A stretch of DNA of 64,000 bases, from NCBI GenBank assembly GCA_000934665.2, contig KZ538288.1:1-64000 (forward strand). The letters run 5' to 3'. The DNA comes from Catajapyx aquilonaris (lineage: Eukaryota). The notes beneath the pieces were generated by a model. That model saw nothing but the letters and a program-made list of their open reading frames with translations. It was not told the DNA's origin and made no database searches. The translations under genes and the position numbers were made by a program. Shown here piece by piece: positions 4,716-64,000 of this stretch (the stretch's first letter is position 1; every line of letters starts with the position of its first letter).

Positions 4716-6319
4716 TACGTGAAGCGCTTATTTACCAGTACACCCACTATACAGAGATCATTGATAATGCGAACCCTACAAGCTGCACGAACTGTGGTGA
4801 GCACTTGGTTATACGCTCGTAAAAACAGATGAACAATGGCGCAGACTGTTGCACAAGTTGTTTCTCTTTAAACGGGGCTGTTGGACTAAACAATCCTAAA
4901 CTTTCTTTCCCGACTCTCCTCTTGAACTGTCCTCAATGTCCCAATCCTGACCGGGGGGGGGGGGGGGGGNNNNNNGGGGGGGGATACAAGTCGAAATAAC
5001 ACTGGGACTAACTGGACTGTTCTCCGGTTCAATTGCCTTGAGCCGGACACCTTTCATCAGAGTACTTGTCAAAAGGCAGCCGAGGTTTGTTTGGTCTACC
5101 TGTCCTCCCCAGCTGTCGATATTCAATGTCCAGAGCTTTCAAAACATGACCCGTCCCACTCTTCCGTCACATCCGCGGACATTTTTGACTGTCCCGTGTC
5201 TTATCCGACCATGTTTTCGACGCCGGGAGGTGTCACACACGCTTGTCACAACGTCCATTTTTTATCCCGAGGAGCTGCTTTGCCATCTGGCGAGGGCCAT
5301 TTCGCAAGGGGAGCCTAAAAGAGAGCGCCATGAATATTTGAGGATCCTTTCCTTGAGGCTCATCCCTCAGGAAAACGGCCATCTTGGATTCAGCCACAAC
5401 TCCTGCGGCACCTTCCAATCACCGTCTCGACAGCAGCCCTTTTCCGTCCTAAATTTATACCCGGGTCTTAGGCTCTTCCTGGTTGCAGCCTCCGTATCTA
5501 TTGGAAACAAGAGCGCTGGAAATAGCTTTTCCTAGAATCCACTTTTCCAACCCCCAGCAAGGTTTTGCAGGCTATAATTATATCAGGTTTCAAAATGGCA
5601 AATTCGAAGCGACCTATACCTTCCTCGTCACCTCGACAGGTGTGCCGGATCGATCCGAATCGACTCTTCTCCTATAGTTTCTCCCTGCACCTTTTCCTAT
5701 AGTATACAGTGTGAACAAGTGCAAAGACCTGTATACGAACTGCATCATTTGCAGCCTGGAGTTTGTATTACACTAAATCAATATAGGCAATGTAACTAGT
5801 GGCTACGTCCCCACGATTTCCTTTCCACTTCCCCTGCAATACTGTATACTAGAAATGGCCCTCCCTACATAGAACATCACTTTCATGTGACAGGCCCGAG
5901 ATGACAAATTATATTAATAAGCATGCAAGGAGTCGAGGGTGGGCGTCGCTTTAGCATGCGATCTAGTGGAGTCACACTCGGGTTAAAAAGAAGCGTTTGA
6001 AGAGGGGGGGGGGGGGGGGGTAAGTTTCATTCATGGGGACCGGTCACATCCGATCTAGGCTCGTCCTATCACGCCACCAGTCAAAAAAAGGGGGCCCAGT
6101 TCGAGACCCAGTCCATATCCGGTCCTTTCAAGCACCATCCAATAAAAACTTTTTGTCCGGTGTGGTCCTTTACTTGTATGCACGACGCTTAAGAGGCGAC
6201 TTCAGGTCCCTGTATGTTTTATTTCAATATATACATATATAAATAATAGGCAAAGCTTGTCTGTTTGTCCATTTTATACCCGCGCGAAGAACGGATTCCC
6301 TGCTATAGATGAATTGATT

Positions 6320-9707: not shown

Positions 9708-9739
9708 AGGCAGGAGTCCACCAATTGGCTGCTGGCCAT
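9708..9739 (-). CDS. CTNND2: Start-codon-bearing coding part of a 138-nt exon (9708-9845) of a delta-catenin/p120-family gene; MASSQLVDSC(L)
   Basis: Acceptor tactgac...ttatttttttcttccag| at 9846 and donor CCT|gtgagt at 9707. The ATG (9737-9739) has strong context (AGTATGG) and in-frame stops upstream. Joined to exon 2633-2674 it gives LVDSCLRLLQDKG, versus human CTNND2 LVDSCIRSLQESG (recalled from memory; 9/13 identical). The symbol means 'CTNND2-like'. Confidence 0.72.
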
Positions 9740-9845
9740 ACTGTGTCCAGGACTCACAACTCCGGGAAGCTGGGCCCCCAGAACCTAGGCAGCCCAGGGG
9801 CCGTCATAGCCTCATGAGCACTGATAGGTCCGTCTTAGGCACTAC
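9740..9845 (-). other. 5' UTR part of the start exon, containing two uORFs (MRL*; MTAPGLPRFWGPSFPEL*)
   Basis: Lies between the acceptor at 9846 and the main ATG. It has three stops in the main frame, and two upstream ATGs whose ORFs close before the main ATG. Confidence 0.6.
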
Positions 9846-33090: not shown

Positions 33091-34375
33091 CTGGAAGAGA
33101 GATCCTTCAGCATCATGATGCAAGGGCCTCTAATTTCCTACCATCAAGATTTCCCCTCCGGATATCTTAAATAGTTCATAACACTGTGCAAAAAGCAACG
33201 GAATTCATTAATATTTGATGCTGCCTGTACTCTTTTTTTTGTATATTCTAGTTCCCCCCCTTTTCCTGGCGCCTTTTCTTGTTACTTCCGACCTGTCATG
33301 ACTGCGCATGGGAAAAGGGGCTAAGCCGTCAAGCAGTTTCGACGTGGGGGTAGAAGAGGGAAGGTTTCTACCACCTACATTATGTACATATTTAGTAGGT
33401 GTGAGGATGGGGGAGAAGAGGCAAGAGATGGTAACTGCGCAGTGAAACACGTTCTGGACTGGTAGGCTACATTGTAAAGGGTTGGGAACGCTGTAAGTCT
33501 AACAAAACGCGTCTTACGATTCCGTTGGGTTATTGTACGACTTTGGGAGAAGGCTCCAGGAGATCGATTTTGGAGGAAAAGGAGGAGGGGACGCCCTAGC
33601 AAGGCCGCTTCCAAAAGGAAGCTGCAAGATTCCGCCAGACAAATTCTTGAGAATGAAGACCCTGCTGCCTATACAGTATTTTATCTGAGCCCAAGCCAGG
33701 AAAACATGATGGTATATATCACAAAAATTAGTCCAGAACATATAGGTAAAGTTGGAACATCCGGCCAAATTCAGGCATAATTTTTCGCAACTCGCAACAC
33801 TATATTCCGAAATCACAGCACTTTTTGTGAGCATCGGAGACATGAACAGATTGGGCAAAGCCACATTACTTGAGCCTCTCAAGAATTTCGGGCCAATCAC
33901 ACCGGAGCAATTTTTGTCCACTGAAATTTATCCCCGGACAAAAATCCAGGTCGGGGCTGGGTGGTTGCGAAAGGACGACTCCTGAGAGCCGTATAATCTG
34001 GTTGCCGCTGCTACTACCATCCCTGCTGTCGATGCTGTGCATTTCGGAACGGAGTCTGCGCCGTCTTCTCCAAAACGGGCCAACGCCCTATCTTTCCCGG
34101 AGCAAAAACCAACCCCCCCAACCCTCGACTCTTTTCCATGCAATTTCCCTGCTTCTCACACTGCTGACCTGTATCCAACTGACGCATAATCACCGACCCC
34201 CCAAAAAAATATTACAATGAGCTATTGTGGAACAGGGTGTCGATTAATGACAGTGACGTCACAAATTCGGAGGCGATAATTTTTAGGTTCAGCAATCCTT
34301 TGTCCTTGGTTGTGTGTAAGCCACAATGCATGCTGATATGCTGAAATGTGTAAAATCATGGTGTGCCGTACTCAC

Positions 34376-34409
34376 CACATGCACAGGTATTGAATCGGGA
34401 AGTGCTCAC
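34376..34409 (-). other. 34-nt micro-exon or recursive-splicing (RS) exon candidate
   Basis: The minus strand reads ctaac, ag, a T-run and cttctttgcag|GTGAGC...TGCATGTG|gtgagt. This is a branch point, polypyrimidine tract and CAG immediately followed by a 5' splice-site consensus, with a second strong donor 34 nt downstream. Confidence 0.65.
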
Positions 34410-35124
34410 CTGCAAAGAAGAAAAAAAACTGTTAGCATCGTGCCCATTTTCATCAACCAGGCTTCACCCTTTTTTTTTATCAGCTTAGTGTCTAATGAAA
34501 TAACCGGCTGCATTTATGACAACGTGCGCCATAACCAAGTCGATTCAGCTCGTTTTAATACCCACAGAAAAATATCGACCTGCTAAGAAAATCTCATCTT
34601 ATCGCCTTTTTTTCCGTACAGCAAAGTAATGAACTTTTTTTTTAAAGTGTCTATGAAATTGCGCGTTACCTATATCCTATAGATAAATAATATTGACATG
34701 CGGCGAATAATTGGATACACCAAAAGACTGCGATTACGAATTTAATCGCGTTTTCCCAGCACTGGCTGGCCAATTGATTTGCATATACAGGGATCAAATG
34801 CATTACAACGAAGGTCGCTCACTGACCTCAACTCGCACCTGCTGCAGCGTAAAAATCGATCTACGCTTTTTACGTCCAGTTTTACTCCCAGCAACTTGTG
34901 TGCCATCACAGGTATCACGTTACACCGTGTAGGGTCAGGTAACTGACGTTTATTCGACTAGCTCTTGAGCCCGGGAAAAACTGTAGCATGTTATATTCAT
35001 AATTAGGCTTCAAGACTTGGAAGGGATGTTATTCCACCTGGCACTTTTGATCCCAAGGTATTTAGCCCTACCTGGTATCCCCCCAAAAAATCAGGTTATT
35101 TCACCTCATACTCATACAGCATTC

Positions 35125-60100: not shown

Positions 60101-62825
60101 AGACTATTATCAGCGCCATCAACCTCATTTCATCCGCAAGTACCAACATTACTCAGCGAATGCAAACATTACCAGGAAGACTTTTTTTGTCTTTTTTTTT
60201 GGGGGGGGGGGGCACCCCCCCCCGGCTCATTACAANCTCTTTTTTTTCTCTTTTTTTCTAGAGACCATATATACCCCCACGACAGATGCCTCACTTCTGT
60301 AGCTTTTTTTGTGTGTGTGCTCCTATGGTCTTTTTCTGGAGCAATATTGTCGACAGTTCGTTTTGTCTTGAGCCTGAAAACAAAATGCTGGAACGACAGG
60401 AATTCGCACTCTCATTGACAGACACTACAAACTTATTAGTGGAATGTGCAATTAATAATGACATTCCCCACTTCACCACATGACCCCAGACATTTCTATG
60501 CAAGCACTAATAGAAGAAGAAAAATCTTTTCTGGCAGGCCTGACTTTTGATTTCTGCAATTTGTGCAATTAGCCTAATTGCACAAATTGCACAAATCAAA
60601 GTGAAACCGGTGCCAAAATTTGGTACGACAGTGACAATCAAACAATCATTTTTAATGAAGTGTCCCGCCGATTTACCACGTAGTATGGTTCTTCACGCAT
60701 AGATGGCGCACACTCCATCTGCATACTCCTGCCACCTTCAGGTCGTGCGACAGAGAGCAATACTATCAGGACGGACAAACATCCCACGGAGAGAATAAGC
60801 CTATTAGAAGAAAGATAACAAACATAATTAACCAACCTGAACTGATTGCGACATTAATATTTTGGGTCATGTAATCGACCTTAACCTATTCACATGTAAG
60901 TCAATATTATCATATATGTATTAAACACACCAAAATCTATAGTGTTTGCACAGTCCATTCAAGCTATATGAATGGGAATCAGCAGGTTTGCACGCGAGCT
61001 GCAACCACACCTGAGGGGGTGTAAGATGACATAGTCGATAAGTGCAAATCTCCTGGAAATATAGTTCATTAATGAGACATAACCGTGGACGTTTACTACT
61101 TGCCGAGCCACGGTTTTATGGCAAATAATTGGGGAGGGAGCTTTTAAGTCTAATCAATTAATAAAATTGGTGCGGCCCCCCGCCAAGTGTTTCTTTCCTT
61201 GAATCTACAGTTTAGGGAAGGGCAATTTTCTTTTTAAAGGTTGCATAAGGAGGGCCATATCTAAAGCCCAAACCAGTGATTTTGGGGAGTGTTCTCTATT
61301 GATTTTTTTTAGCCGCCCTGAAGGTTGAGGCCAGTCCCACCGGATTCATTTCACACAGGAATGGACACAAAACATGGGCAAATTCTGCAAAAGAAAAAAA
61401 CCCCGAGGCTATATTATAGAAGGGAAGATTAGGGAAGAGCGTTCACTTCAAAAAGCCCCCCTGGGAATTATTATTTTTAAGCACGAAACTCTGACACAGT
61501 TTGATTGAGAAATGGTTCGAATCAATAGCAACACCACTTAGATATTGTGACAGTTACTGGAAAGCTTCATATATCAAATCCCTGGAAAAAGGGCGCAGAA
61601 AATGATCCAATTTTAGCTCCAAGTGTTGAAGTATTATTGGCGTCTGGACGTTTCAGTTCGATTACACACTTACACCATTTTTTTTACTATTGTTTTTTGT
61701 AGAGGATTCCAGTAAATCAGTGACATTGATAAGAAACTTTGCTCTTTCTTTTCCCTCCCCTCCCAACCTCTAGTATATGTTATCCTATAAAGTCGATGGT
61801 GCCAAGCACCACGTTGCTTTTTCGTCTCATGTTCCTCATGCTTTTCGTGGAGGTGGCCGGCCACATAAATCATCTCCCCCCCAACCCCAAAATCGATTGA
61901 CAGGTCCTTAAAGTTACTCAGAGTACGATAGGCGCCTGTGAAGAGCTGCCCTCCTTCAAAGTTCCAGCGAGAGATGAAAAAAAAAGTGTAAATAGTACCG
62001 TTGCCATCTTGTCGAATTAAGACGTTCAACAAAATGGCGGTAAGGCGGCCATGTGGAAAGAATTTCATCTAAACTGTCATGTGGTGTAGAGACAGGATTC
62101 CCTGTCCTTTTAGGGCCATTCATGTGCAGTGAATCGAGCCGGTTCTATTATCTTGGGATGAGGGTGAGGGGGAAGTCCCCTTTATATAGAAACATGGGCA
62201 AATATCACTTTATCGAATGATCGGGGCATGAACAAGGCAGCTTACTTATTGCTTTTTTTATGATAGCGAGGTTTAATTTGTTAGAAAGGAAGCGAGTGCA
62301 TACAGTACTGTGCCGATGGTAAAATCCAACCGTCATCTGTGGGCAAGTTTGCAAACAAGTCGAGTAACATGCACCATCTCGTGTATTTGCATAGAACCGA
62401 CGGACATACAGTAGCCTACTGTGTATGGCACGCACCTGACTTATCAAGCAAAAAAAAAAAGACACGAACAATTTCTATAATGGGAATGACGTCATGTCAA
62501 ATTGATGTGACCTAGAATTGGACAGATTTTCCTCTCAAAATGTAGGGCAGATGTGTCACAACAATTAGCACGCCTGCTGAGTGCTTACCTAATAGCCTTC
62601 ACATGTACTGACTCCTCTCCGTGACCTCCATAAGCATGAATGGTATGTACAACATGTGTCACATGTCATTGGAAATGGAGGAACTCTCTATGGTGCATGG
62701 TGTCGTAGTAAATTACTGTATAATGAGGCATTAATTACTTATCAGCATCAGTTATCACTATTACCAGCTCTTGCTATTACAAAAGATCACAATGCATGTC
62801 ATTACATTTAAATAGAGGAGCAATA

Positions 62826-63102
62826 CCGAAGCAGGTTGGTGTAGGGTGTAGGGGATAAGGAGCCCGCCTGCTAATCGGGAGGTCCTGGGTTCGAATCCCG
62901 CGGCCGGCGACCCGGACCATGGTTTTCTGTGGTTTCCCATGGTCCCCTCCAGGAGATTTCCGGAGTTGTTTCCTAAACTAATAGGCCACAGCCGCTTCCT
63001 TCCTTCCCTATCCCTGGTCCCATCCAATGGTGGTAATCCACCCTCCTAAGGGAGCCAAAGGCTCTAGCACGGGGTATGAAATAAATAAATAGAATAAATA
63101 AG
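62826..63102 (+). mobile_element. Full-length tRNA-derived SINE with a Nin/Deu-like central domain
   Basis: A-box-like TGGTGTAGGG, B-box GGTTCGAATCC (62888-62898), body GGTTTTCTGTGGTTTCCC...TAGGCCACAGCCGCTTCCTTCC and an (AAAT)n tail. A 13-bp TSD TAGAGGAGCAATA flanks it at 62813-62825 and 63103-63115. The domain assignment is from recalled similarity. Confidence 0.88.
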
Positions 63103-64000
63103 TAGAGGAGCAATAATGGAGCAATGAAGATATAAAATATGCAAATAATATTGAAGCAGCTCAGCATTAATTATTATTGGCAAGATATTATGCAAGTCAG
63201 GAGTAATTCGCTTTATGCAATAAATTATTCGTGTAAGTTTACAGAATTGTAAACCTTCCATATTACTTCTCCCATGAAAATTGAATGCAACTGGAGTAAA
63301 ATAATTACATAAATATCTACTTAACATTACACACTGTGTAAATAAAGGTAAATATCATTTAAAGTTTTGCACTATTTTTTAATCTTAAAAAGTGGAAGTT
63401 TTTCTGCACTCCTAGAGAGGTTAGGAAGACCATTACGAAGCGCGTTAATAATATTTGCCACTACATTTCATATGGGTAGCAATTATAATTAGGGCTTACC
63501 TTTAGGCCATTTGAAAGCAAAGGTATAATATTTAAATTTTAGCCAATTAGACTGTAGCAATGTGTGAAAAAAGTAGGCAATGACAACTAATTGCCCCGCA
63601 ATACTAAGGCCATATTGTGCAGTAACCCATCAATATTTCACTCTATTGGGTGTGGTCAGCTAGTTTTACACTTCGTCCTGATTATTTTTTTAAAGCCACA
63701 ATGATTCTCTTTTCATAGGTTTTTGGAAAGTAATTTTGTTGCACTCTGACCACTTTTTGCTCATTACAGCACAAATCACACGAGTTAAATAAAAGGAAAC
63801 CAGTAATCATTTGTTCATTGCACATGTTATGCAATAAAGACCTGGATTTTGGAGGGCACAGCATTGACATACAATCATACATGCAAGTTTTTTTTGGTAT
63901 GGTATGTAATTGTGAGATTTGGACCAGATTATGCCACTGATGAGAGTTCTTGTTTTGTTTCAATGGCAACAATATTATTGATCAACAATAAAAAAACAAT

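Follow-up and report, generated by a model that had tools for sequence, protein, structure and literature searches.

The stretch of DNA considered here comprises the first 64,000 nucleotides (nt) of contig KZ538288.1 of Catajapyx aquilonaris (assembly GCA_000934665.2), hereafter the window, near the middle of which the minus strand displays an apparent acceptor that is followed, with no intervening base, by an apparent splice donor. The question that this locus raises is whether that junction, lying between positions 34410 and 34409, might act as a ratchet point (RP), through which a very long intron would be removed in two steps, and, if so, whether the 34 nt that separate it from another donor have any consequence for the encoded protein. 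The initial annotation had suggested that competition between the two donors could decide between a zero-length exon and an exon furnished with a start codon, which choice would then select the N-terminus of the protein. On the basis of sequence statistics and of the fit to the published defining features, we assign a probability of about 0.55 to the reading in which the element between 34435 and 34370 represents a Drosophila-type recursive splice site—namely, an RP followed by a short cryptic recursive-splicing exon (RS-exon)—in a long 5' intron. The first half of the earlier proposal is thus supported by the sequence, inasmuch as the junction is a strong outlier and agrees with the defining features of RPs and RS-exons in its tandem motif, its tract with TT, its downstream donor, and the length of the exon; the selection of a start codon is unsupported.

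Architecture of the element

Read along the minus strand, the element begins with the branch-point-like motif CTAAC (34435-34431), whose branch A lies at -23 from the first base past the AG, and continues with two bases, a tract of 15 pyrimidines without interruption (34428-34414) that places TT at -5/-6, a single G, and the CAG that ends at 34410. The sequence GTGAGC (34409-34404) comes directly after, so that the RP core recognized by inspection and by junction scoring is CAG/GTGAGC (34412-34404). The second donor, GTGAGT (34375-34370), starts 34 nt past the junction and would be the donor of the candidate RS-exon, which unit extends from 34409 to 34376, has a length that is not a multiple of three, and ends in ATGTG; the bases directly preceding that donor are TGCATGTG. 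In all these letters and coordinates, from the CTAAC to the second GTGAGT, the initial annotation was correct.

The 34-nt unit has a stop in frame 1, and a codon-bias scan gave no signal at the site. The unit shows no sign of coding content, in keeping with RS-exons, a property that matters little if the intron lies in the 5' untranslated region (5'UTR). Near the 3' end of the unit a TGCATG motif (34383-34378) encloses the ATG at 34380-34378 to which the start-codon proposal referred, and another GCATG occurs at 34333-34329, 42 nt into the downstream intron.

Statistical strength of the junction

To weigh the element against its surroundings, every AG/GT junction in the window was scored with acceptor and donor matrices that were rough, having been written from consensus frequencies; the ranks, as well as the strict-motif count given below, are insensitive to the fine values of those matrices. 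The junction at 34410/34409 was at the top of the 418 AG/GT junctions found on both strands (233 on the minus and 185 on the plus), with a summed score of 23.9 as against 15.6 for the runner-up. Among the sites of the minus strand, the acceptor part occupied the second place out of 3,668 AG sites and the ratchet donor the first out of 3,776 GT sites. By multiplying the empirical tail fractions by the AGGT count, we obtained an expectation of sites having both parts of only 0.0013 (minus strand) to 0.0023 (plus strand) per strand.

The same junction was singled out when the matrices were dispensed with. Under strict criteria—YAG/GTRAG, at least 14 pyrimidines out of the 16 positions from -20 to -5, and TT at -5/-6—the site at 34410/34409 was the one match across both strands of the window; and since 400 windows simulated with an order-3 Markov model yielded six such sites, both strands counted, the expectation is 0.015 per window. 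Five YAG/GTRAG sites exist on the two strands: that at 34410 has 15 of 16 pyrimidines, the other four 3 to 6, and at 34410 alone does a further GTRAG occur within 150 nt. The probability that a GTRAGT begins 20-100 nt downstream of a random position is 0.03, and a CTAAC is present at -45 to -13 of the AG in 59 of 3,676 minus-strand AG sites (0.016). In addition, the acceptor together with the second donor constitutes the best acceptor-plus-donor pair in the window on either strand.

Membership of the site in a repeat family was considered and rejected, because a local blastn comparison of positions 34100-34700 with the window returned short low-complexity matches only. The architecture is accordingly real, and its accidental origin in the window is very unlikely.

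Strand, host gene, and intron context

Regarding the strand on which the element would be read, the minus strand contains more G than C in 29 of the 32 2-kb bins of the window. The cumulative excess of G over C climbs steadily from position 1 to a maximum at 61,965 and is flat thereafter (z = 15.3, a value unaffected by the removal of the G/C homopolymer runs), which course delimits, between 1 and 61965, a steady domain of strand asymmetry in which the minus strand shows G>C and T>A. In several eukaryotes an asymmetry of this kind marks the non-template strand of long transcription units, and we read the domain as one such unit enclosing the site. Of the strong acceptors, likewise, 20 belong to the minus strand as against 10 to the plus strand.

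A stretch at 8395-8324 of the minus strand provides a separate line of evidence, in that, among 20 consecutive codons, as many as 19 have G or C in the last position, within a window whose G+C content is 43%. This codon bias is unmatched elsewhere in the window, and the stretch is probably a real coding exon. Two independent lines, the strand skew and this codon-biased exon, thus point to transcription of the minus strand through the site, and on them depends the placement of the element in the sense orientation of a long 5' intron.

The exon predicted to come next after the site, at 9845-9708 on the minus strand, has an acceptor that ranks tenth of 3,668 and a GTGAGT donor, and would comprise 5'UTR with two short upstream open reading frames (uORFs) plus an ATG. 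This ATG, at 9739-9737, is flanked by A at -3 and by G at +4 and is in frame into 8395, while the frame read back from 8395 contains three stops inside the exon upstream of the ATG; therefore, if the predicted exons are real, coding would start at 9739 and the long intron would lie in the 5'UTR. The same exon starts with a weak AG/GT of its own (CAG/GTAGTG) and contains an internal GTGAGT (9757-9752) that is a possible alternative donor. Further along, an exon of 42 nt is predicted at 2674-2633 on the minus strand, with a strong acceptor (third of 3,668) and a GTAAGT donor.

At the opposite end, good plain donors occur on the minus strand near the onset of the skew, at 62,436, 62,589, and 63,500, and the interval 61965-64000 is a candidate for the region of the transcription start and first exon of the host gene. 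If the boundaries of the intron were near 62 kb and at 9845, its length would be some 52 kb and the site would be situated about 53% of the way along, dividing it into segments of approximately 28 and 24.6 kb. The mid-position within an intronic span of more than 35 kb that the initial annotation had attributed to the site is plausible, one boundary (9845) being taken from exon prediction and the other (about 62 kb) from the skew.

With respect to the identity of the host gene, a word-index protein search with the 42-residue frame around the exon 8395-8324, directed at longer proteins, gave no candidate, and an exhaustive HMMER search retrieved only two matches, at E values of about 1e-5. We judged both matches to be spurious, the proteins in question being internally repetitive and aligned through repeated weak stretches. 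In the Pfam search, which took the 40 longest out of 101 open frames having 90 amino acids or more, no domain exceeded the threshold, a single sub-threshold PAN match being recorded: the open frame at 33514-33927 on the minus strand resembles PAN_1 with E = 0.0028 and 17.9 bits as against a cut-off of 21.4, which resemblance is probably due to chance. The whole window gave zero matches in Rfam at gathering thresholds and zero tRNAs in ARAGORN, and its observed/expected CpG ratio (CpG o/e) of 0.80 is unlike that of vertebrate DNA.

Proposed splicing route and points that weigh against it

If the element does function as a recursive splice site, the 34-nt unit would be recognized first as an exon, with U2AF and U2 at the CTAAC, the tract, and the CAG, and with U1 at the GTGAGT. 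The upstream exon, whose end would probably be near 62 kb, would then be joined to 34409 with the removal of about 28 kb, which ligation would regenerate a donor of the form xxx/GTGAGC, where xxx stands for the last bases of that exon. Through the splicing of this regenerated donor to the acceptor at 9845 the 34 nt would be discarded along with the remaining 24.6 kb, the result being a zero-length exon. An occasional use of the second donor would instead keep the 34 nt in the 5'UTR, in which circumstance the message would acquire a mini-uORF encoding Met-Trp-stop and the protein no new N-terminus.

Such a scheme turns on the relative strength of the two donors. With the rough matrices, the intronic part of the ratchet donor GTGAGC scored 3.80 bits and that of the second donor GTGAGT 4.72 bits; when the genomic CAG was used as a stand-in for the end of the upstream exon, the ratchet donor reached 7.6 as against 5.1 for the second, although in the actual upstream exon it is the final three bases, for which the CAG is a stand-in only, that would decide the full comparison. 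We regard the two donors as nearly equal in strength.

A number of considerations weigh against a recursive splice site at this position. In its intronic part the ratchet donor falls below the RS-exon donor, whereas flies generally show the opposite order, with the ratchet donor ahead (Joseph et al., 2021; PMC8605326). The predicted segments of about 25 and 28 kb are about twice the usual size in flies of 9-15 kb, and the 34 nt fall short of the approximately 50 nt given for cryptic RS-exons. The intron is deduced rather than observed, and for this organism it is an assumption, carried over from work on other eukaryotes, that the skew identifies the transcribed strand. The one convincing coding exon of the host gene, moreover, is without a detectable relative in the word-index and HMMER searches; the scoring matrices are rough; and the support as a whole comes from the sequence of the window. 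An exact 24-nt pattern across the junction had zero matches in metagenome contigs, and a gapped pattern combining the junction core with the second donor matched seven loci in those contigs, none of which was homologous to the window: a lone 15-nt match, to the core of the pattern, was all that they yielded, and their G+C fractions were 0.37-0.65.

The start-codon question

For the 34-nt exon the initial annotation gave three joinings, all of which were reproduced when we joined the respective coordinates by script. The ATG at 34380 opens a continuous frame into 8395-8324, produces Met-Trp-stop when followed by 9845-9708, and produces Met-stop when followed by 2674-2633. Nevertheless, 12.7% of random 34-mers drawn from the minus strand contain an ATG from which the frame stays open in the phase required for 8395, and at that chance rate the presence of the ATG carries little information. 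An open frame is obtained, furthermore, only with the exon 9845-9708 skipped, despite the top-10 acceptor of that exon. The context of the ATG, with T at -3, had been described as weak in the initial annotation; that description is correct, and T is found at +4 as well.

An exon whose ATG, in a usable context, opens the frame of the host gene is accordingly not what the sequence predicts here, and we rejected the ATG at 34380 as a meaningful start codon, in view of the Met-Trp-stop formed with the next exon and of the chance rate just mentioned. The TGCATG motif in which that ATG is embedded would be another reason for its presence, and one unrelated to translation.

Alternative explanations

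The explanation that comes closest in its predictions to a recursive splice site is that the 34 nt are an ordinary cassette exon of the 5'UTR, possibly under regulation of the Rbfox type, which exon would be included or skipped in one step, with the GTGAGC at its beginning either coincidental or rarely used. We consider this explanation unlikely, though the least so of those weighed here. That the acceptor and the second donor are by themselves the best exon-like pair in the window, and that the second donor has the stronger intronic part, both speak in its favor, as does the arrangement of the GCATG motifs, one within the exon just before the donor as TGCATG and the other 42 nt downstream. 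The sequence (U)GCAUG is the binding motif of splicing regulators of the Rbfox family. Counts of TGCATG over the whole window are 32 for the minus and 17 for the plus strand, and stretches of 120 nt holding at least two GCATG make up 0.7% of those on the minus strand. The pattern may reflect regulation of the Rbfox type. The pair hints at a regulated inclusion of the 34 nt; but because the pairing was spotted after the fact, we take it as a lead only. What counts against an ordinary cassette exon is that exons starting with GTRAG after YAG are rare, there being only the five YAG/GTRAG sites on both strands of the window, and that this explanation grades into that of a recursive splice site, since in published usage an RS-exon is one that carries a functional donor at its 5' end (PMC8605326). 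A combination of the two, in which a tissue-specific factor bound to the (U)GCAUG motifs tipped the balance between the ratchet donor and the second donor, would yield either a clean 5'UTR or one with an AUG-UGG-stop uORF, or else a Met-Trp N-terminus if the next exon were skipped as well. This form of a regulated RS-exon we hold to be quite improbable; if true, recursive splicing would serve, in an invertebrate other than a drosophilid, to switch translation or the N-terminus.

Somewhat less probable than the ordinary cassette exon, and to be doubted, is a chance cluster of splice-like motifs that is devoid of function, whether intronic or intergenic. The site was picked by eye from the whole window, many windows having been scanned, and, given rates of about 0.001-0.015 per window, a large genome is bound to contain some instances that are due to chance. 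Yet the expectation of 0.0013-0.015 is reached before either the second donor (P = 0.03) or the CTAAC (P = 0.016) is counted, the site lies on the strand to which the skew and the coding exon point independently, and in the long introns of five invertebrates most of the RP motifs in the sense orientation exceed the antisense background (Shepard et al., 2009; PMC2773006). The least credible of the explanations is the switch that the initial annotation had envisaged, in which donor competition kept or dropped the start-codon exon so as to select between two N-termini. The similar strength of the two donors and the open frame that the ATG at 34380-34378 forms upon direct joining to 8395-8324 would agree with that idea. 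The 12.7% chance of such an ATG in a random 34-mer, its poor context (T at -3 and at +4), its location inside a TGCATG motif, and the Met-Trp-stop that results with the next exon—which exon has both the tenth-ranked acceptor and, at 9739, an ATG of its own that shares the phase and is the better one, A being at -3 and G at +4—render the switch highly improbable.

Other features of the window

A perfect palindrome, TGACGTCA, which we take to be CRE-like (resembling a cAMP-response element), is present at 34254-34261, about 110 nt downstream of the second donor and adjoining a stretch with a TAAT core, and occurs again at 62487-62494, near the onset of the strand skew. In the plus-strand reading, the region around 62860-62945 resembles the T-arm and acceptor end of a tRNA, with no tRNA call by ARAGORN, and is probably the remnant of a tRNA-derived short interspersed nuclear element (SINE). 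The 64 kb contain 19 homopolymer runs, of G or of C, that reach 10 nt or more (e.g., at 4953, 6004, 8145, 25174, and 26178), and several of the 15 N bases of the window are within or beside such runs, a combination that looks like either a signature of the assembly or sequencing chemistry or an unusual property of the genome.

Comparison with known systems

The RPs of Drosophila, exemplified by those of kuz and Bx (PMC8605326; Duff et al., preprint, 10.1101/006163; Pai et al., 2018, PMC6110457), are the closest counterparts of the element. They have been described as tandem acceptor/donor pairs encompassing a short cryptic RS-exon, of about 50 nt though variable, together with its downstream donor; the RS-exon is recognized first, the regenerated donor then usually wins, and the exon's content shows little conservation and in most instances does not keep the frame (PMC8605326). 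In 196 of 197 fly RPs the positions -5/-6 are occupied by TT (10.1101/006163), and one or more recursive sites of high confidence occur in 63% of the fly introns longer than 40 kb, such sites being enriched in first introns and, when single, being located near the midpoint, with segments typically of 9-15 kb (PMC6110457). The experimental hallmarks of RPs are splicing intermediates (split reads into the site, a saw-tooth in intronic coverage, and recursive lariats) and a junction core that is more conserved than its surroundings; in kuz and Bx, a weakened ratchet donor leads to inclusion of the RS-exon. The element shares with these RPs the tandem AG/GT, the tract, and the TT at -5/-6; the short downstream cryptic exon with a GT donor of its own, a length that is not a multiple of three, and no sign of coding; and, if the predicted boundaries are right, a location as the single site close to the middle of a putative first or 5' intron of great length. 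It differs from them in having G at +3 and C at +6 of the ratchet donor as against the GTAAGT consensus, a cryptic exon of 34 rather than about 50 nt, and predicted segments of some 25-28 rather than 9-15 kb, and in being known here from its DNA sequence. The surroundings are also unlike those of Drosophila, in that the window contains the tRNA-like SINE remnant and many G/C homopolymer runs and has a CpG o/e of 0.80.

The microexons mI and mII of Ubx (PMC8605326; 10.1101/006163) resemble the 34-nt unit in being small exons that open with a functional-looking donor, so that the choice of donor after the first ligation decides on inclusion. Those microexons, however, encode protein, keep the frame (51 nt), and show deep conservation, whereas the unit in the window has 34 nt and probably belongs to a 5'UTR. 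With the RS-exons of vertebrates (Sibley et al., 2015, as cited in PMC8605326; Blazquez et al., 2018, PMC6224609) the element would have in common exon definition, a reconstituted 5' splice site, and a binary choice between donors, which choice, in the long vertebrate genes, is controlled by donor competition and the exon junction complex (PMC8605326; PMC6224609). The CpG o/e of 0.80 in the window differs from the vertebrate condition, as does the background to be expected for the motif itself, the long introns of vertebrates being without an enrichment of RP motifs in the sense orientation (PMC2773006).

The most direct quantitative comparison is with the RP predictions of Shepard et al. (2009; PMC2773006), which, like ours, were made from DNA alone and concern high-scoring sense-strand motifs in long introns. 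In introns longer than 50 kb, the high-scoring RP motifs per 100 kb in the sense versus the antisense orientation were 2.20 versus 0.10 in the fly, 1.03 versus 0 in the mosquito, 0.81 versus 0.10 in the beetle, 0.54 versus 0.07 in the sea urchin, and 0.48 versus 0.12 in the bee, so that the sense enrichment in those five species was 4- to 22-fold; in eight vertebrates the sense/antisense ratios were 0.9-1.5, with no enrichment (PMC2773006). From such ratios it follows that an RP motif in the sense orientation of a long invertebrate intron would be something other than background in roughly three-quarters to nineteen-twentieths of the instances, and the site at 34410 is much stronger than a match at the threshold of an RP prediction. 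That survey provided genome-wide counts in five species (PMC2773006), while the present analysis concerns one locus to which the donor of a downstream cryptic exon is added.

Within a limited search of the literature, the experimentally demonstrated cases that we found were from Drosophila and mammals, other invertebrates being represented solely by the motif-enrichment survey of 2009 (PMC2773006). If confirmed at the level of RNA, the element would constitute a clear case of recursive splicing in the manner of flies, with a cryptic RS-exon recognized by exon definition, outside Drosophila and the vertebrates; and, because its two donors are nearly equal in strength, the site is a ready test case for donor competition. 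Set beside these systems, the site is a well-supported prediction of an element of a known kind, and not a new mechanism.

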